A stretch of DNA of 40,766 bases from Kagunavirus LF7074P3, in sequence record OZ035791.1, one strand, 5' to 3'. Positions 8,988-36,612 of the stretch are shown in pieces. Both the position numbers and the translations under genes were made by a program. The first letter of the stretch is position 1; the number at the start of each line of letters is the position of its first letter. The notes below the pieces were generated by a model that was not told the origin of the DNA, did no database searches, and was given only the letters and a program-made list of their open reading frames with translations.

Positions 8988-9400
8988 TGGGCTACTTTGA
9001 GGACTTAACAAAAGCGTTCGATGTTCCGCTGGTAGCCTTCGGAACCACCAACGGCATCAAAGTCGCGCTTGAAAATATCGACGCGCCGACGTCAACAGAT
9101 ACCCCGTATCTGGCAAGTTACATGTTACTTGCGGACACCGAGCAGGCGGATTTGTTCTTCACGGAACAACGCGCGGGCGTCTATCAGGTTGACATTAACT
9201 ACGCATCGGTGAAAGGTAGCGCGCCAATCAATAAAATGGCAGACTTACTTAACACAGCGTTTAAAGCAGGTAAGTCATTTTCACGTAACGACATCTGCGC
9301 CGAGGTTCAATCGGTTAGCCTGGGGCCGCTGATTGTAGAAAACGGATGGGCCAAAAGACCATTGTCAATTAACTTTATTGCATTCACCAAGAGGCTGTGA
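8984..9400 (+). CDS. hypothetical tail completion/terminator protein
   Basis: 138-aa ORF, overlapping starts/stops with neighbours, immediately upstream of major tail gene. Confidence 0.45.
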   Translation: MMGYFEDLTKAFDVPLVAFGTTNGIKVALENIDAPTSTDTPYLASYMLLADTEQADLFFTEQRAGVYQVDINYASVKGSAPINKMADLLNTAFKAGKSFSRNDICAEVQSVSLGPLIVENGWAKRPLSINFIAFTKRL

Positions 9401-10569
9401 ATATGGCTACAACTCCTTTTAAGGGCGCGAATACCGCGCAATTCTATGTGGCGGAAACTACCCCGGGCGTAACACCAAGTAACCCGGTATGGTCACCATT
9501 GCGCAACACAGGTGGCGTTCCAGCGGTAACCCGCGATGCGCTGACTTCCAACGAACTCGACGGCAGCCGTGAAACTACATCCATTCGCACCGGTAACAAG
9601 CAGGTTAGCGGGGAGTATGCCATCGAACTTAGCTCACGTAGCCAGGATGACTTCCTTGCGGGGGCGATGACTTCTACGTGGCAAGCTGGGGTAGAGATTA
9701 CGGGCGCCGAAATTACGGTCGCCCCCGCGGGTAAAACATTCACCCGCGCTGCCGGTAGCTTCATTACTGACGGTGTAGAAGTTGGTGACCTGATCGCGTT
9801 CACCGACTTAACCGGCGACAACGCAAAACCGTTTATCGTGACCGCGGTTTCTGCTCTTGTAGTAACAGGCGCGGGCATTCAGCACACGCTGACAGCAGAG
9901 ACAGTAACCACTGACGCAAAAACTGGCGACAAACTGGAAACCGGTAACGCATGTAAGACGTTCTCCATCCTGACGTGGTTCAAAGGCCAGTGCGGCAACC
10001 CTGACGCATACATGCTGACCAAAGGCGTGGAAATCTCCGGTTTCACCATTGAACAGGCCGTAAACGCGATGGTGACAGGCAGCTTCCCGTTCATCGGTCT
10101 AAGTCAGGAAATTCTTACCACGCCGCCAGCAGGTTCCGACTTCTCTCAGGTCACATTCACCGATGAGCCGTTCTCTTCTGTGGATGTGTCTGTGTTCGAC
10201 GGTTCTACACCGTTGCGTTGCGACACACTTACCATCACCAACGACAACGGCGCTTCCGCACAGTTTGAACTAGGAAACAGTAGCGTTGCGTTCGTGGAAC
10301 GTGGTCGCGCGGCTAACACCTTCTCCATCTCCGGTAAGCTGTACGACATGGCGATGATTCAGAAGTTTATCAACGAGCAACAGGTGGAGATCAACTCTAT
10401 TCTGGCGGGGGTAAACGGGGCTATGTCTTTCAGCCTGAAACGTGCAGAACTCACGGCAGTTACGCCAGAGATTGGTGGACCTGAGTCGATCACTCAGTCT
10501 ATTGAAGGGCAGGCTACTGGCAACCAGTACCAGTCGTCTATTGTTATCCAGCGTATCACCTACGCATAA
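9397..10569 (+). CDS. major tail protein (positional call)
   Basis: 390-aa ORF, last gene before strong terminator. Confidence 0.6.
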   Translation: MNMATTPFKGANTAQFYVAETTPGVTPSNPVWSPLRNTGGVPAVTRDALTSNELDGSRETTSIRTGNKQVSGEYAIELSSRSQDDFLAGAMTSTWQAGVEITGAEITVAPAGKTFTRAAGSFITDGVEVGDLIAFTDLTGDNAKPFIVTAVSALVVTGAGIQHTLTAETVTTDAKTGDKLETGNACKTFSILTWFKGQCGNPDAYMLTKGVEISGFTIEQAVNAMVTGSFPFIGLSQEILTTPPAGSDFSQVTFTDEPFSSVDVSVFDGSTPLRCDTLTITNDNGASAQFELGNSSVAFVERGRAANTFSISGKLYDMAMIQKFINEQQVEINSILAGVNGAMSFSLKRAELTAVTPEIGGPESITQSIEGQATGNQYQSSIVIQRITYA

Positions 10570-10574
10570 AACTA

Positions 10575-10597
10575 AGGCCCCGAAAGGGGCCTTTTTC
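10575..10597. terminator. bidirectional rho-independent terminator
   Basis: AGGCCCC-GAAA-GGGGCCT hairpin + TTTTT; sits between convergent genes (9397..10569 + and 10598..11152 -). Confidence 0.8.
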
Positions 10598-11152
10598 TTA
10601 CAAACCTAATTTTAAAGCAATGTCTATAACGTTCGATTTAACGTCACCTGGTAGGATGTAGGTGTCGTAATCTTTTACACCGCTAACATCATACAGATAA
10701 CCGCGGCTGTCCCCCTCAAACGTATAGCCTTCTCGGTGCAGGCGAACGATTCTTACATCATGACCCGCGGCGACGATAGGGGCCACTTCGCTGGCGAACC
10801 CGCCGTCGGACACTACAAAAACTTCGTTGCCGTCGGGCAAGTTTTCAGCAAGATACTTACCGAAATAATCACTACCAAGTACCGGTTTAATGAATTGCTC
10901 AGATATAGCAATCATGAACTGACGCCGCGACAAGCCATTAAGGAAGCCTTCTGGCTTTTCTTTCCGCGCTCGGTCGTCGTAGCCGTCGAGAAACTCGTGG
11001 TAAGCACCCGGGCCTAACGCTGCCAGAGCAATATTGAACATTGGATTCTTGAAACTGGTAGTTCCCTTCGCAAAGCCCATCTCTACCAGCGCCATAGCAA
11101 GTGTGTCTTTCCCGCAACCCGCAGGGCCATTAAGAATAATTACCATAGCCAT
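10598..11152 (-). CDS. P-loop nucleotide kinase (dNMP-kinase-like)
   Basis: 184-aa ORF with Walker A GPAGCGKDT at N-terminus (SGKDT resembles T4 gp1-type dNMP kinases); start overlaps upstream stop (TAATG). Confidence 0.55.
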   Translation of the reverse strand: MAMVIILNGPAGCGKDTLAMALVEMGFAKGTTSFKNPMFNIALAALGPGAYHEFLDGYDDRARKEKPEGFLNGLSRRQFMIAISEQFIKPVLGSDYFGKYLAENLPDGNEVFVVSDGGFASEVAPIVAAGHDVRIVRLHREGYTFEGDSRGYLYDVSGVKDYDTYILPGDVKSNVIDIALKLGL

Positions 11153-11637
11153 TACTTATCACTCCCGTGCGATTTTAAGTGTGTAGAGTTCCCGTTACAG
11201 TCGTATTCAGTAACCGCGTGAGTGGTTATACCGAGGCCACGGAAATGCTTTATTACCGCTGGCGAGTCGTCGAATGCGCACAAGATTCTTTCCAGCCCGA
11301 TAGTACGTAGCACCTCTTCCTTAATTACGATGTCTTTTCTGTTGTCGTGTTTGCTGCGCATGATTAACTGATAAAATTCGACGCGGTGGCGCTGCAACCA
11401 CATTCTGGTTTCTTTTTCCGCGTCATCACTACGGCCTGTTAAGATAATAACGGCATAGCGACGATTAAGGGCGTTACACAGTTCGATGTTATCTTTAATG
11501 GGTGCATCGTCTTTGCACGCCATGTTAAATGGTTTCCACGCCCAGGTTTCGCCGTAGTTATCTTTCGGCAGCAGGTGTAAACGATGAGCACCATCTGCCA
11601 ATGTCCCGTCTAAATCGAAAATCACAATATCTTTCAT
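11152..11637 (-). CDS. HAD-family phosphatase, T4 Pnk 3'-phosphatase-like
   Basis: 161-aa ORF; N-terminal DLDGTL (DxDGT nucleophile motif), later TGRSDD, RKDIVIKEEV and AFDDSP segments paralleling T4 polynucleotide kinase phosphatase domain (recall-based). Confidence 0.65.
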   Translation of the reverse strand: MKDIVIFDLDGTLADGAHRLHLLPKDNYGETWAWKPFNMACKDDAPIKDNIELCNALNRRYAVIILTGRSDDAEKETRMWLQRHRVEFYQLIMRSKHDNRKDIVIKEEVLRTIGLERILCAFDDSPAVIKHFRGLGITTHAVTEYDCNGNSTHLKSHGSDK

Positions 11638-12770
11638 CCAAGCATCTCCGGTGAAATAGTTAAACGTGCGACCTCGCCATATTCGGCGCTATAAGTAATT
11701 ACGTTTGCACTGCGGCCCGACATCCACCCACCGCGGGAGGCATATGCATCTTTAGCCGCGAGAGTGCGGTGTTGCTCAACAATCATGTTACGGCTTTCTA
11801 CAATCTTTTGGTGGTGCAGGTGACCCACGTGGGCGTAGCTGTAAACACTCTCTCCGAACGCTTTGCGGAACTTGGCGATCATAACCGGTTCGATAGCGTC
11901 GAATCGTGCTTTATGCCCATGATGGAAGAACAGCGTCGTTTTGCCGTGTTGCACCATCTTGTAAACATCCGGCGACGTATCGACGAACACACGCGGCTCA
12001 TTGTCGTACAGCGTACTAAACATCTCAGCTAACCAAATCATTCCGCTTTCGTCGTGGTTACCTTGCACGATAAGCAAGCGAACATTTTTATGTTTAACGA
12101 GAGCCATATCAATGACACGGCGGACCATACGAATCATGTAGCGTACAAGTTTCTGATAGCGGGTGTCAGCGTCAAGAACATGGCCACTTGCGGGTGTAAC
12201 GGCATCCAGACTATCGAAGTGCGCGAAGTCACCTAGCAGGTTAATAACTCCTGTTCCCGCATCTGGCGCTTTCTGAAACGCTGCGTCGAACCATCGAGAG
12301 AACAGGTCTTCTGCGATTTTCATATCCCAGTCGTCGCCGCTCTCGTCGGCCCATGCCAGCATACCGAGATGAAAATCAGATACAGTGTAAAGATTGAGTA
12401 GCTTGTCGTCACGTTTGGTGCGCACGGCTTTAACCGGCGCAACGGGGGTAATCTCTGACTTCATGCCCTCAATTACGGCTTTCATAGCCTCTAACTGTTT
12501 CTCTTTATCCGGCTCGGAAATCACCCACGTCATCACCTCTTCGCCATTAGCCTTTACGCAAGCGGATATTCTTTTAGCAGAGAACCCTTCCGCTATGCGT
12601 TTGGATATTACTGGGTCGTTCCCGTGACCTATGCCCTTCTTGGCTAATCGTGCTTTACGGATACGAATTACGCGGTCTGAGATGCCGTATTTACGGGCGA
12701 TGTCTATATTCCTCATCCCGGCGCTCAATTCTTCCTGTAACTGTTCGTCGGTTATTTTCTTCTGGGCCAT
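11634..12770 (-). CDS. metallophosphoesterase with N-terminal HTH domain
   Basis: Calcineurin-like motifs SDFH, GDFAHFD, GNHDE, HHGH, GHLHH; N-terminal HTH-like ...IDIARKYGISDRVIRIRK...; ATG 12770 chosen (RBS GAGGAAG); track ORF extends to 12875. Confidence 0.65.
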   Translation of the reverse strand: MAQKKITDEQLQEELSAGMRNIDIARKYGISDRVIRIRKARLAKKGIGHGNDPVISKRIAEGFSAKRISACVKANGEEVMTWVISEPDKEKQLEAMKAVIEGMKSEITPVAPVKAVRTKRDDKLLNLYTVSDFHLGMLAWADESGDDWDMKIAEDLFSRWFDAAFQKAPDAGTGVINLLGDFAHFDSLDAVTPASGHVLDADTRYQKLVRYMIRMVRRVIDMALVKHKNVRLLIVQGNHDESGMIWLAEMFSTLYDNEPRVFVDTSPDVYKMVQHGKTTLFFHHGHKARFDAIEPVMIAKFRKAFGESVYSYAHVGHLHHQKIVESRNMIVEQHRTLAAKDAYASRGGWMSGRSANVITYSAEYGEVARLTISPEMLG

Positions 12771-12808
12771 GCTTACTTCCTCGTGTTTAGGATTTGTCCT
12801 ATAGTAGC

Positions 12809-13000
12809 CTACTTCTCTTTCACGTTCGAGTTGCAAGCCCAGATTAAAATAAAGACCCACGGCAGCAGAACCCAACCAAGAAACAGATTAGCCATGAATA
12901 TCGCTAACTTCGCTTTATGGTTACGGAAGTACGCAACCAGGAAAGGCGCGAAATAAGCGAGCAGTGCAAACAGAATTAAGGAAACTGGTAAACTGGACAT
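12809..13000 (-). CDS. small 2-TM membrane protein, superinfection-immunity (Imm) family-like
   Basis: 63 aa from ATG 13000 (RBS AAGGGG); ...AYFRNHKAKLAIFMANLFLGWVLLPWVFILIWA... resembles Imm_superinfect-type small membrane proteins (recall-based). Confidence 0.45.
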   Translation of the reverse strand: MSSLPVSLILFALLAYFAPFLVAYFRNHKAKLAIFMANLFLGWVLLPWVFILIWACNSNVKEK

Positions 13001-13030
13001 TTTAAACCCCTTCATTGTTGGTGTAAGTGA

Positions 13031-13059
13031 ATAGTACCCTATTATATTGGGGTGTGCAA
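13031..13059 (-). promoter_or_regulatory. sigma70-like promoter TTGCAC-N17-TACTAT driving the minus-strand island
   Basis: Minus-strand reading cTTGCACaccccaatATAATAGGGTACTATTCAC; 32/34 identical to promoter at 34757-34790. Confidence 0.6.
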
Positions 13060-13167
13060 GTAATGTGATAGAATAAGTTTGCGCCTAGTGTCGCACACGA
13101 AAAGCGGGTGGTTCCCGTCTGGCGCATTTATCGTTAACCTGTAACCTCTTAACCAAAGGATTAAAGA

Positions 13168-13584
13168 ATGAAACTTTCTGATTTTTATTTCGAAGAGAAA
13201 GCACTGGTAGGCAAGAAGATGCCCATTCTGCTGCCAAACGGCGAAGACTCCGGTGAATGGCTTAACGTTGTAAGTCCCGATGCGGATGTCGCCGTTAAAG
13301 CGGGGCGTGCTTTCATTATTGCGTACCGTCGCGGGTTGGCGCGTTTCGAAGAACTGGAAAAAGCCGCCAAAGAATCCGGCGACTATACTGAATATAACCT
13401 GGCTATTAACGAACTGGCGGAAGACCTCAACCGGCAACTCGCGGCAGAAGTCGTAAACGGCTGGAGCTTTGATGAGCCTTTCTCTAAAGAAGCATTTAAC
13501 AAATTGCTGGACCAGTTCAAGGCATTAGGCACACAGGTAGCAGCGTTCCATAACGCTGAGCGCAAAGCATTACAGGAAAAGTAG
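13168..13584 (+). CDS. tail assembly chaperone (G-like)
   Basis: 138-aa acidic ORF immediately upstream of tape measure gene; RBS AGGA; ends at slippery G GAA AAG TAG. Confidence 0.55.
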   Translation: MKLSDFYFEEKALVGKKMPILLPNGEDSGEWLNVVSPDADVAVKAGRAFIIAYRRGLARFEELEKAAKESGDYTEYNLAINELAEDLNRQLAAEVVNGWSFDEPFSKEAFNKLLDQFKALGTQVAAFHNAERKALQEK

Positions 13585-13949
13585 ACGCGCTGTACAGGTT
13601 CGCCACCTATGAGTTTGTGGATAAGCATAAAATCAGAGAGTTTGATTCTATAGCCGACGGACACGAACAGGCGCTTATCGCGATGGGTGTAATCGATAAG
13701 AAAAAACGTGCAGCGCGACGGGGTGGGCCAGAATGCCCGCCCCTTTTTATATCCACCTTCGAGACGTACTGCGACATTAAGTTTACGCGACACGTGCGCG
13801 AGGACGCTGTAGTATTGTTCGCAAGAGAATCCGTTACGTGGCAAGACCTGAAAGCCTATCTCGATGTTACGCAAAAACAGCTTAGCCTGTTCGAGATAGA
13901 CATTATCATGGGCTTAGAAGCAATCTTTGAAGGTAGAAATCATGGCTGA
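13560..13949 (+). CDS. tail assembly chaperone -1 frameshift extension (T-like)
   Basis: -1 frame is open from 13560 to 13949 overlapping the end of 13168..13584; slippery heptamer G GAA AAG at 13575-13581 resembles lambda G-T site G GGA AAG. Confidence 0.4.
   Translation, partial: AQSITGKVDALYRFATYEFVDKHKIREFDSIADGHEQALIAMGVIDKKKRAARRGGPECPPLFISTFETYCDIKFTRHVREDAVVLFARESVTWQDLKAYLDVTQKQLSLFEIDIIMGLEAIFEGRNHG
13575..13581 (+). other. candidate -1 programmed frameshift site
   Basis: G GAA AAG immediately before stop TAG of the chaperone ORF. Confidence 0.4.
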
Positions 13950-16215
13950 TACCGCTAGCTTGATCGTACGAGTATCATCGACCGGCGTCGATAAAACCAC
14001 ATCACAACTGAACGGGCTTACCAAAGCCGCGGGGGCCGCCGCCGCTGCCGTTGTCAGTCTGGAAACTGCCAAACAGGTGTTCAGTGCGCTGGTGGACTCC
14101 CAGCGCAACTTCGATAAGCTGAACTCCGGCCTCATCACAATGACCGGGAGCGCTGAGAACGCGGCTAAGGCTTTCAGCGTCCTGCAACAGTTCGCAAAAG
14201 AAACCCCATATGGTCTTAACCAGGCGGTGGAAGGCTTTACTAAGCTGGTGGCCCTCGGCCTGAACCCAAGCAAAGAGGCGTTAATCTCCTACGGCAACAC
14301 CGCGGCGGCTATGGGTAAAGACCTTAATCAGATGATTGAGGCGGTTGCCGACGCCAGTACCTTTGAGTTTGAGCGACTGAAAGAGTTCGGTATCAAGTCT
14401 TCCCAACAGGCAGATACCGTTTCGTTCACGTTCCGCGGCGTCACCACCACGGTTAAAAAGAACTCCGAAGAGATTCAGAAATACCTGCTAAACATCGGCA
14501 ACACCGATTTCGCCGGGGCGATGGAGACGCGCTCTAAGACGTTAGACGGTCAGTTGTCGAGCCTGGCGGACTCCTTTGATGGCCTTGTACTTGCGGTAGC
14601 GCAATCCGGTTTCGGCGACGCCGTAGGTGAGCAAGCCGCGAAGGCAGAAGACGCTATTTCGGCACTCACCGACGCCATTGCGTCTAATGAGATAGCCGCC
14701 ACGCTCCAGGATTGGGTGACACTGTTCAATGAATCATTCAAGTTTATTTCTGATGCCTTAAACGACCTGGCATACGATACCGAGGACAAATCCGCGGATA
14801 TGTCAGACTCGCTGGGTACTATACCGGATGCTATCCGTGAATGGTTGCCTGACATCCAGCAGACGTTTCACGAGGTTATTGCGTGGTTCCAGCGCATTGA
14901 CGATTACGCCGTAGCGTTAGGTCAGACCCTCGCAGACGTGTTTGATCCGAGCAAAACGGCAGCACTCACATTTAAAAACCTGACCGCAGAAGCTGACGCC
15001 GCATACGCCGCCAGCATAAAACGCGCCGAGGCCGAATCACAGGCCATCACCAACAGGTCTAAGCAGCGTAAGAAAGAAATTGAGGAACAGCGCAAGCAGT
15101 ACAACGAGCGTAAGAAGCAAGAAATAGACTTAGCCAGCCTTGTTAATAAAAAGGGCGGAACTGGTGGGGCAGGAAATGCCAACGACAAAGACGCGAAAGC
15201 CGCCGCTAAGAAAGCGGAGCAATTGCGCAAACAAGCCCAGGATTACCTCGACACTTTGGCCCGTCAGAACAACGACGAGTTAAAGGCTATCGACGCGCAG
15301 GAACAGCAGAAACTGGCTAAGGCAAAAGAGTTCTACAGCCAGGGCGCGTTGTCCCTGAAAGAATATGAACAAGCTAAAACAGCTATCGTCCTCGAAGCCG
15401 GGCAAAAACGACAAGATGAACTGGATAAACGCCAGAAAGAAGCCCAGGAAAAGCAACAGAAAGGTGACGACTTCATGGCTCAGATTATGGGTCAGAACGC
15501 TACTGAGCTTGAGCTTCTCGACATCCAGGAACAGCAGAAACTGGCGGTAGCGGATAAGTACCGCGAGCAGGGTTTTATTAGCGAGAAGCAGTATCAGGCC
15601 GCTCTTAACGCCATCAACGAGCAATACGCAACCAAACGTGCCGATGCAACGGCAACGGCCTTTGGTAACATGGCCTCAAACATCGGGTCTGCGTTGGGTG
15701 AGGCTTCTGGCGCGTACAAGGCATTCGCTATCGTACAGGCAACTATCGCCACGTACACCGCAGCTATTGAGGCGTACAAGTCAACGGCAGCTATCCCTGT
15801 AGTTGGCCCGTTCCTGGCCCCTGTAGCCGCTGCCGCTGCCGTTGGTGCAGGTATGGCGCAGGTTTCCGCTATCCGGTCCGCGCGTGAACAGGGCGGACAG
15901 TTATCCGCAGGGCAGGCTTCCACCATCGCAGAACGCGGTAAACCAGAAGTTATTATGCCGGCTGGCGCATCTCGTGTTCGCACAGCACAGCAGATGAAAG
16001 AAATTATGGGGCAAAACGGGTCTTCTTCCGGCCCGTCTAATGTTACTATCGTAAACAACACGAGTTCTCAAATCGGCAACGTATCCACTGAGCAAGATGA
16101 CGAAGGCCGTTTGCGAATCATCATCGAGGAGCAGGTGGCTGCCTCTTTGCAGAATAGCAACAGCAAGATTAGCAAGGCCCGCAAAGCCACAAGAAATGCG
16201 CCGGGGTTTAAATAA
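13942..16215 (+). CDS. tail tape measure protein
   Basis: Longest tail-region ORF; coiled-coil-rich, Ala/Gln/Lys-rich, internal 20-bp exact direct repeat; ATG 13942 preferred over TTG 13927. Confidence 0.8.
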   Translation: MADTASLIVRVSSTGVDKTTSQLNGLTKAAGAAAAAVVSLETAKQVFSALVDSQRNFDKLNSGLITMTGSAENAAKAFSVLQQFAKETPYGLNQAVEGFTKLVALGLNPSKEALISYGNTAAAMGKDLNQMIEAVADASTFEFERLKEFGIKSSQQADTVSFTFRGVTTTVKKNSEEIQKYLLNIGNTDFAGAMETRSKTLDGQLSSLADSFDGLVLAVAQSGFGDAVGEQAAKAEDAISALTDAIASNEIAATLQDWVTLFNESFKFISDALNDLAYDTEDKSADMSDSLGTIPDAIREWLPDIQQTFHEVIAWFQRIDDYAVALGQTLADVFDPSKTAALTFKNLTAEADAAYAASIKRAEAESQAITNRSKQRKKEIEEQRKQYNERKKQEIDLASLVNKKGGTGGAGNANDKDAKAAAKKAEQLRKQAQDYLDTLARQNNDELKAIDAQEQQKLAKAKEFYSQGALSLKEYEQAKTAIVLEAGQKRQDELDKRQKEAQEKQQKGDDFMAQIMGQNATELELLDIQEQQKLAVADKYREQGFISEKQYQAALNAINEQYATKRADATATAFGNMASNIGSALGEASGAYKAFAIVQATIATYTAAIEAYKSTAAIPVVGPFLAPVAAAAAVGAGMAQVSAIRSAREQGGQLSAGQASTIAERGKPEVIMPAGASRVRTAQQMKEIMGQNGSSSGPSNVTIVNNTSSQIGNVSTEQDDEGRLRIIIEEQVAASLQNSNSKISKARKATRNAPGFK

Positions 16216-34756: not shown

Positions 34757-34785
34757 TTGCACACCCCAACATAATAGGATACTAT
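34757..34785 (+). promoter_or_regulatory. sigma70-like promoter TTGCAC-N17-TACTAT with ATAG-N4-CTATTCA dyad
   Basis: cTTGCACaccccaacATAATAGGATACTATTCAC; near-identical copy on minus strand at 13027-13060. Confidence 0.65.
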
Positions 34786-34819: not shown

Positions 34820-35005
34820 ATGTTTAAGAAGGGTCAGTTGGTGAGAACCAGACACCATGGCAAAGGTGTAATTAAGCACGTTTCGCAGAGAGTTGCAGAT
34901 AGGTATCTTCTTACCAATCCGTATTGGGATTTTGATATGTATTTCCAGGGACGCGAAATAGTAGAGCTCATCGGCAACAATTTTAAATTCAAAGGGGCGA
35001 AGTGA
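34820..35005 (+). CDS. hypothetical small protein
   Basis: 61-aa ORF, RBS GAGGAG. Confidence 0.5.
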   Translation: MFKKGQLVRTRHHGKGVIKHVSQRVADRYLLTNPYWDFDMYFQGREIVELIGNNFKFKGAK

Positions 35006-36003: not shown

Positions 36004-36032
36004 TTGCACACTAAGATAGAATAGGCTACTAT
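36004..36032 (+). promoter_or_regulatory. sigma70-like promoter TTGCAC-N17-TACTAT with ATAG-N4-CTATTCA dyad
   Basis: aCTTGCACactaagatagAATAGGCTACTATTCA, 32 nt upstream of gene at 36064. Confidence 0.6.
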
Positions 36033-36063: not shown

Positions 36064-36612
36064 ATGAAAGATTATAGCGAAGTAACTTTAGGTGAGTTGC
36101 AGGACGAGTACGAAGATATGCTCTACCCGTTCATCTGCGACGGGGACTACAACGGCGTCTATAACGGGGTGAGCGAAGACCTGGCGCATGAGGTGCAGAT
36201 TAAGGAGTTGCGGGAAGACAACATTAAGAAATCTGAGCACATATCGCACCTAACAGGGCAAGTTAAGGAGTTGCGTCTGGCATTGGCCAAGGCTACTGGT
36301 GACGTGGAGGCATACAAACTTATCCGCAAAGGTGCGTACGGTTCGGAGCAATCTGGTTGCCGAAAAGAAGATACGCAGGAATGTGACCACAATTGGATTA
36401 TCGCTCCAGGATTGTTTATTGCCGAAGGCCACAAGGACAACGTGCCCGGTAGCCTGTTTTGCTGCGAATGCGGCAAGCGTGAGTGGGACGGACTTGAGTA
36501 TGGGCCAACAGCCTGTACACGGGAGTGCAAACACAGTTTCTATTATGTAATAACAGATGGCTCCGCGCCGTTCGGTACGAAAGTATGTAAAACGTGCGGG
36601 GAATACTTCTGA
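36064..36612 (+). CDS. Cys-rich (zinc-ribbon-like) hypothetical protein
   Basis: 182 aa; N-terminal coiled-coil-like region, C-terminal CxxC...CxxC clusters. Confidence 0.5.
   Translation: MKDYSEVTLGELQDEYEDMLYPFICDGDYNGVYNGVSEDLAHEVQIKELREDNIKKSEHISHLTGQVKELRLALAKATGDVEAYKLIRKGAYGSEQSGCRKEDTQECDHNWIIAPGLFIAEGHKDNVPGSLFCCECGKREWDGLEYGPTACTRECKHSFYYVITDGSAPFGTKVCKTCGEYF

Follow-up and report, generated by a model that had tools for sequence, protein, structure and literature searches.

Bacterial Pnkp, known from Clostridium thermocellum, places a calcineurin-type phosphoesterase beside a P-loop kinase and is used in end healing. In T1-like phages (Drexlerviridae), genes described as a DNA repair exonuclease, a polynucleotide kinase (PNK) and a deoxynucleoside monophosphate (dNMP) kinase form a run on the main strand, at the end of the replication module and ahead of the lysis cassette. 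The exonuclease is persistent in 508 of 522 Drexlerviridae, with PNK and dNMP kinase as the commonest next genes, and a function in nucleotide supply has been suggested (PMC13164509, 2026). T1 and TLS break down host DNA and reuse its nucleotides, and the genes responsible are unassigned (PMC11447400). Here we describe a locus of Kagunavirus LF7074P3 (OZ035791.1) in which the same enzyme families occur in the same order, the metallophosphoesterase (MPE) being 42-47%, the HAD phosphatase 57-61% and the kinase 42-50% identical to those of Drexlerviridae. In contrast to the Drexlerviridae run, this locus, hereafter the island, lies within the tail module, on the strand opposite to its genes, and includes a gene for an Imm-like membrane protein. 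The window, by which we mean the whole stretch of 40,766 nucleotides that was analysed, is essentially a complete 40.8-kb genome of the Kagunavirus type.

The locus is real and well delimited, and it is already known: the same four genes are annotated in the same place in dozens of Kagunavirus genomes, and the trio of enzymes has been remarked on in T1-like phages. For the collinear relative fTaEco01, in which the island region is 92.7% identical to the window, GenBank record MT711527 annotates a putative deoxynucleotide kinase (HHpred 99.5% to T4), a polynucleotide kinase/phosphatase, a metallophosphoesterase (HHpred 99.6% to the PolD small subunit) and a superinfection immunity protein. The list of open reading frames (ORFs) and the family matches confirmed that four minus-strand genes lie between the plus-strand tail tube and tail chaperone genes. 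An earlier note on this DNA had described them as an inserted island encoding a P-loop kinase, a Pnk-like HAD protein, a helix-turn-helix (HTH)-fused MPE and an Imm-like protein. Profile searches and structure prediction bore out these four identities and point to a different, probably ordinary, role. We favour, at about even confidence, an early accessory operon that would combine DNA breakdown with dNMP salvage and carry an unrelated superinfection-exclusion passenger.

The island kinase is predicted to be closest to the dNMP kinase of T4

The last gene of the island (10598-11152, minus strand) encodes a P-loop protein of 184 aa with the fold and family match of a gp1-type (d)NMP kinase-like protein. 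It matched PHROG139 'dNMP kinase' (E 2e-43), the same label as T4 gp1. No Pfam model recognised it, and no NCBIfam model recognised any of the four proteins. Searches of the PDB by sequence, single and profile, returned only P-loop or spurious repeat matches for the kinase. An AlphaFold (AF2) model was built with 65 homologues as input (pLDDT 94) and compared with the PDB using Foldseek. The top match was the T4 gp1 dNMP kinase (1DEK; E 3.8e-5, TM 0.69), followed by archaeal adenylate kinases and phosphomevalonate kinase, and T4 Pnk (1LTQ) was not among the top 50 matches. Profile alignment with hhalign gave the same picture. The alignment with gp1 covered 74 columns at 86.5% probability, taking in the P-loop, the following helices and part of the nucleoside monophosphate (NMP)-binding region, whereas the alignments with T4 Pnk (28 columns) and the T4-like Pnk of PKO111 (28-32 columns for the two) were confined to the P-loop.

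The motifs were in agreement with these matches. The P-loop of the island kinase reads GxxGxGKD, with G9-PAGCGKD16 invariant among homologues, and shares the GKD ending with gp1. Both the GxxxxGKD P-loop and the NMP-kinase fold, with gp1 as its nearest match, are present. A conserved SFKxPM motif follows strand 2. In T4 Pnk this position is occupied by RDD, which includes the catalytic Asp. Neither feature expected of a Pnk-type 5'-OH kinase, namely similarity past the P-loop and a catalytic Asp after strand 2, was found in the island kinase. Collectively, these results suggest that the kinase is of the NMP-kinase type and closest to T4 gp1, and phosphorylation of dNMPs is predicted from its sequence and modelled structure. 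The two proteins are nevertheless distant, at ~17% identity and with 184 aa here against 241 aa in gp1, and the substrate specificity is a prediction. Kinases at least 80% identical to that of the island were found in only 52 GenBank phage records. The T4 dNMP kinase gene 1 (locus L007, 2650-3375) has 57A and gene 3 as neighbours and is likewise surrounded by morphogenesis genes, which is loosely comparable to the position of the island.

A stand-alone phosphatase of the Pnk type precedes the kinase

Immediately upstream of the kinase lies the gene for a stand-alone Pnk-type HAD 3'-phosphatase of 161 aa (11152-11637, minus strand). It matched PF25109 HAD_PNKP (E 3.6e-19), and its best PDB matches by sequence were Pnkp1 (4XRP) and the phosphatase domain of T4 Pnk (1LTQ/5UJ0). 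Residues D8, D10, R19, R69, D102, K106 and D123/D124 aligned with D165, D167, R176, R213, D254, K258 and D277/D278 of T4 Pnk. The protein thus has the DxDGT nucleophile (D8/D10) and equivalents of T4 R176, R213, D254 and D278 (R19, R69, D102 and D124), and it keeps all six of the residues that we take to be essential for the T4 3'-phosphatase. Judged by these residues, it appears to be a genuine member of the Pnk-phosphatase clade with an intact catalytic site. More distant HAD_PNKP homologues adjoin thymidylate synthase genes (ThyX or ThyA).

The likeness to T4 Pnk (PseT) is limited to the phosphatase domain. T4 Pnk is a kinase-phosphatase fusion with the kinase at the N-terminus, whereas in the island the two are separate ORFs, with the phosphatase upstream and a kinase of a non-Pnk type. 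A fused HAD-kinase protein was sought elsewhere; the candidate, a 342-aa Pbunavirus 'PNK', has an N-terminal HAD domain and was rejected, its C-terminal half being unrelated to the island kinase. The stop codon of the HAD gene and the start of the kinase gene overlap by 1 nt, and the stop of the MPE gene overlaps the HAD start in an ATGA, so that kinase, HAD protein and MPE are translationally coupled.

These findings bear on the Pnk-like end healing, as repair or counter-defence, that was proposed in the earlier note. In such a scheme 2',3'-cyclic or 3'-phosphates would be taken off by the MPE and the HAD protein, and 5'-OH ends would receive a phosphate from the kinase; phage DNA or tRNA that defence nucleases had cut would then be rejoined by a host ligase, LigA in the case of DNA and RtcB or another enzyme in that of RNA. 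A phosphatase of the Pnk clade with all its catalytic residues would suit this role, as would the translational coupling of three genes that are syntenic across phage families, the DNA-binding-type HTH of the MPE and the precedent of C. thermocellum Pnkp. However, end healing needs a polynucleotide kinase, and the best match of the island kinase is gp1; like phosphomevalonate kinase, which it also resembles, gp1 points to phosphomonoester substrates, while T4 Pnk is matched at the P-loop alone and SFKxPM stands where T4 Pnk has RDD. Two phosphatase-type enzymes would also be redundant. Bacterial Pnkp-Hen1 RNA repair likewise combines a P-loop kinase with a calcineurin-like phosphoesterase, but the island proteins are separate, the kinase is of the NMP-kinase type, and there is neither an adenylyltransferase/ligase domain nor Hen1. 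As the earlier note had stated, no ligase partner is present: the annotation of fTaEco01 was checked and includes no ligase. No tRNA genes or Rfam families were found in the window. Among the PADLOC models none matched any of the four proteins below E 0.04, and there were no matches to anti-defence families. Kagunaviruses showed no unusual robustness to the defences tested in the BASEL study. They are also reported as highly sensitive to restriction-modification, which speaks against modified DNA; modified-nucleotide metabolism, which the earlier note had offered as a second option, is without support. We consider end healing an unlikely function of the island.

The HTH-fused metallophosphoesterase is the conserved core gene of the locus

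The MPE gene lies within an ORF at 11634-12875. The start codon preceded by a Shine-Dalgarno sequence is the ATG at 12770, which gives a protein of 378 aa (11634-12770, minus strand). The protein matched PHROG704 (E 5e-160), its matches to Pfam Metallophos fell under the curated cut-off, and searches of the PDB by sequence gave no match beyond those of spurious repeat or P-loop type. Across 69 homologues, D133, H135, G181, D182, N239, H240, H285 and H320 were invariant and H318 nearly so. These residues make up the five motifs of calcineurin-like phosphoesterases (DxH, GD, GNH[DE], H and GHxH), and the predicted structure (pLDDT 87) confirmed the fold. In the model, a core of ~258 aa is accompanied by an HTH of three helices and a conserved module made of a hairpin plus a helix.

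Two features of the Mre11/SbcD nucleases were looked for and not found: the MPE model has no capping domain, including at its C-terminal end, and no SbcC/Rad50 ATPase partner is annotated in fTaEco01. The MPE differs from SbcD/Mre11 and PolD DP1 in that it carries an N-terminal HTH and β-hairpin module instead of the capping domain. Its nearest type is nonetheless SbcD/Mre11/PolD-DP1, from which we infer a DNA phosphodiesterase or nuclease activity.

Foldseek searches with the MPE model were non-specific, the first match being the cyclic-nucleotide phosphodiesterase Rv0805. This match would fit a role against nucleotide-based immunity, in which the kinase would rebuild pools of deoxynucleoside diphosphates (dNDPs) and triphosphates (dNTPs) or remove dNMP alarms such as m6-dAMP, and the MPE and HAD protein would hydrolyse signalling or toxic nucleotides. 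The bacterial PUA-Calcineurin-CE+HAD defence, which hydrolyses dNTPs in response to m6-dAMP derived from degraded host DNA, shows that pairs of calcineurin-like and HAD proteins can act on nucleotides. The island proteins, however, resemble no PADLOC model, the HAD protein is of the Pnk type, and literature searches found no experimental link. Such a role is suggested only by analogy with this defence and appears very unlikely.

The MPE family is widespread, occurring in 2,040 phage records that include T1-like phages, Dhillonvirus, Vibrio phages and Campylobacter phages, often without the other island genes; MPEs at least 60% identical to that of the island are present in ~458 GenBank records. 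The MPE of Dhillonvirus JL1 (locus L001, 3992-5134) is ~80% identical to the Kagunavirus protein and is encoded directly upstream of the terminase genes, outside the tail module, which suggests that the gene has been exchanged between phage groups.

Cargo genes vary on both sides of a fixed core

The first gene of the island lies within an ORF at 12809-13015, and its Shine-Dalgarno-preceded ATG at 13000 gives a small membrane protein of 63 aa (12809-13000, minus strand), matching the annotation in relatives. This Imm-like protein scored above the Pfam cut-off for PF14373 Imm_superinfect (E 9e-13; 48.3 bits compared to 27.9) and matched PHROG1039 'immunity to superinfection' (E 5e-23). It shares with T4 Imm a small size and two hydrophobic segments, which are seen in its sequence. 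T4 Imm is ~83 aa long. The island protein also differs from T4 Imm in that it is swappable among relatives with an unrelated 108-aa secreted protein. Its superinfection-exclusion phenotype is predicted.

The window was assigned by similarity to the genus Kagunavirus, subfamily Guernseyvirinae. Its region 9300-14000 is 96% identical to Kagunavirus LF7074P1 over the full length and 88-93% identical to K1G, K1ind1-3, fTaEco01 and many other Escherichia Kagunavirus phages. To examine the locus more widely, we compared 42 Guernseyvirinae loci with both tube and chaperone flanks, a set chosen by similarity to the window MPE and hence biased. An opposite-strand MPE, the promoter region and the terminator were present throughout (the terminator stem in nearly all). 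In Jerseyvirus SB3, a 110-aa ORF, the MPE and a 76-aa ORF occupy the same place. The locus is therefore not the inserted island of the earlier note: the MPE and its signals are fixed here across Kagunavirus and Jerseyvirus, and the variability that the note asked about is confined to the cargo on both sides of the MPE. Rather than a recent insertion, it is an ancestral slot in which cargo changes around a fixed core.

Downstream of the MPE, the HAD and kinase genes were found in 16 of the 42 loci; they are missing from many Kagunaviruses and from all Jerseyviruses examined. Other loci have a 76-aa ORF (PHROG2452) there, at times with a 66-aa ORF, or genes for HNH homing endonucleases (157 or 164 aa) or Ant/Rha-like proteins (203-238 aa). 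The endonuclease and Ant/Rha-like genes, for example L100:6585-7079, L114:6137-6610 and L117:6472-7143, mark this slot as a hotspot of mobile and accessory elements. The 76-aa ORF (L097:6128-6358 and many relatives; L004:4631-4861), which stands in for HAD and kinase in most relatives, matches just the C-terminal third of the ~240-aa PHROGs 2452 and 17613 'ATPase'. The possibility that it corresponds to a domain fused to longer kinase homologues was rejected, their extra residues being N-terminal and unrelated.

Upstream of the MPE, the Imm-like gene was present in 27 of the 42 loci, and most of the remaining 15 carry a 108-aa signal-peptide protein (PHROG14165) in its place. All four pairings of the upstream allele (Imm-like or 108-aa) with presence or absence of HAD and kinase occur, so the Imm-like gene and the enzymes assort independently of each other. 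The coupling of the enzymes to superinfection exclusion that the earlier note proposed is therefore not supported.

Could the slot simply hold accessory or selfish genes, four unrelated passengers on one promoter with no common function? The swapping of cargo on both sides, the free combination of Imm-like and HAD-kinase alleles and the solitary MPE of many lineages are what this would predict. However, HAD and kinase are paired beyond Guernseyvirinae. Across 79 kinase-centred viral loci, HAD is upstream on the same strand in 62, often with an overlap; the two genes abut or overlap in 29 loci, and 25 have an uninterrupted MPE-HAD-kinase run. The pairing, in constant strand and order, is far too recurrent for chance. 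The order of the three genes also recurs at unrelated genome positions: in Klebsiella phage Roth84 the run precedes the lysis cassette, and in Yersinia phage vB_YenM_574 the portal gene. We consider a lack of common function unlikely.

The island has an early-type promoter and a shared terminator

The promoter that the earlier note placed at 13031-13059 (TTGCAC-N17-TACTAT, minus strand) is conserved in Kagunavirus and in Jerseyvirus, where it reads TTGCAT-N17-TATTAT. An overlapping candidate, ATCACA-N17-TATAAT, was ranked higher by a consensus scan but is not conserved in Jerseyvirus. Two sister copies of the island promoter, matching it at 24-27 of 29 bases, are present on the plus strand of the genome. 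The copy at 34757-34785, TTGCACACCCCAACATAATAGGATACTAT, is identical at 27 of 29 bases and precedes an ATG at 34820, and the copy at 36004-36032, TTGCACACTAAGATAGAATAGGCTACTAT, precedes an ATG at 36064. All three are followed by the leader TACTATTCACTTA, with a start codon 30-35 nt downstream of the promoter. They define one promoter family. Behind the two sister copies come rightward plus-strand clusters of small genes that resemble an early region. The G+C content of the island (0.48-0.50) is lower than that of the flanking structural genes (0.53-0.55) and matches that of the small-gene clusters. Together, the shared promoter family and the lower G+C content suggest that the island belongs to the early regulon.

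At the other end, a hairpin at 10574-10593, AAGGCCCC-GAAA-GGGGCCTT, has a T-run on each strand and scored as an intrinsic terminator in both directions, as the earlier note had proposed. It is common to the tail tube gene (plus strand) and the island (minus strand), and its stem is kept in nearly all the Guernseyvirinae loci examined, regardless of cargo. Among close relatives (L089-L153) the 4-nt loop is GAAA or TTTC, that is, it occurs in both orientations, and the stem is constant.

The flanking plus-strand genes encode the tail tube (9397-10569; PF18906, E 1e-38), the tail chaperones (13168-13584 and 13617-13949) and the tape measure (13927-16215). Just upstream of the chaperone start at 13168, three GGTTA(A/C) repeats spaced 7-8 nt apart (13134-13154; TTAACC-TG-TAACC-TC-TTAACC on the plus strand) are conserved in Kagunavirus and Jerseyvirus, with a fourth copy in the relative L115. 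They may be a regulator site or a late promoter from which transcription of the tail genes resumes beyond the island. Upstream of the island promoter (13100-13117, minus strand) there is a small conserved hairpin, CGGG-AACCA-CCCG and then CTTTT, which also occurs in Jerseyvirus and looks like a terminator of antisense transcripts. The 41-aa minus-strand ORF at 13002-13127 spans the promoter region and is unlikely to be a gene; its counterpart in fTaEco01 (TE1_020) is listed as a hypothetical protein.

A putative operon for DNA breakdown and nucleotide salvage

How might the island genes act together? In the salvage reading that we favour, host RNA polymerase would transcribe the operon early, from the conserved promoter to the shared bidirectional terminator. 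The slot that it occupies in the tail module is fixed among Guernseyvirinae and lies at the natural operon break behind the tail tube gene. The constant member, an HTH-MPE of the SbcD/Mre11/PolD-DP1 type, would degrade DNA as a nuclease. The HAD phosphatase would then remove 3'-phosphates from ends or nucleotides, and the kinase would convert 5'-dNMPs to dNDPs, from which host Ndk would make dNTPs for use by the DNA polymerase that the phage encodes. In this phage the variable downstream slot is filled by the translationally coupled HAD-kinase pair, and the variable upstream slot by the Imm-like gene, which would be an independent superinfection-exclusion passenger.

We favour this reading because the fold, profile and PHROG139 matches of the kinase point to the gp1 dNMP kinase, because the HAD-kinase and MPE-HAD-kinase linkages recur in other phages, and because distant HAD_PNKP homologues adjoin thymidylate synthase genes. 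It is also favoured by the reuse of host-DNA nucleotides by T1 and TLS (PMC11447400) and by the connection of the Drexlerviridae trio to nucleotide supply (PMC13164509), and the phage DNA polymerase, annotated in fTaEco01, counts for it as well. The HHpred match reported for the fTaEco01 kinase, the intact catalytic residues of the HAD protein, and the promoter and lower G+C content common to the island and the small-gene clusters point the same way. The earlier note had set its proposal against a conserved block with a role in routine dNMP salvage, and this is largely what emerged: the conserved block is observed, and the salvage role is the part suggested by the arguments above.

Several points weigh against salvage. 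The characterised members of the HAD clade act on polynucleotide 3' ends, and salvage does not obviously call for a phosphatase paired with a kinase. Many phages, Jerseyvirus, Dhillonvirus and Vibrio phages among them, have the MPE alone, so its role need not depend on HAD or kinase, and these two are dispensable, since many Kagunaviruses and all Jerseyviruses examined are without them. Literature searches for functional or escape-mutant data on the kinase, stand-alone HAD and HTH-MPE families returned no assays and two comparative or annotation remarks. A stronger version, in which MPE, HAD and kinase would form a self-contained pathway from host DNA to dNDPs and the HTH-MPE would be the nuclease of T1-type host-chromosome degradation, seems to us quite unlikely. 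Such a cassette may, as a side effect, also weaken immunity based on dNMP sensing or dNTP depletion.

The HTH-MPE is present in about 2,000 phage records and frequently accompanied by HAD and kinase, and the activities ascribed here to the three families are predictions. For the Guernseyvirinae, the locus represents a natural cargo slot, with a fixed early-type promoter and terminator and swappable genes between them, which could be of use in the engineering of small siphophages.

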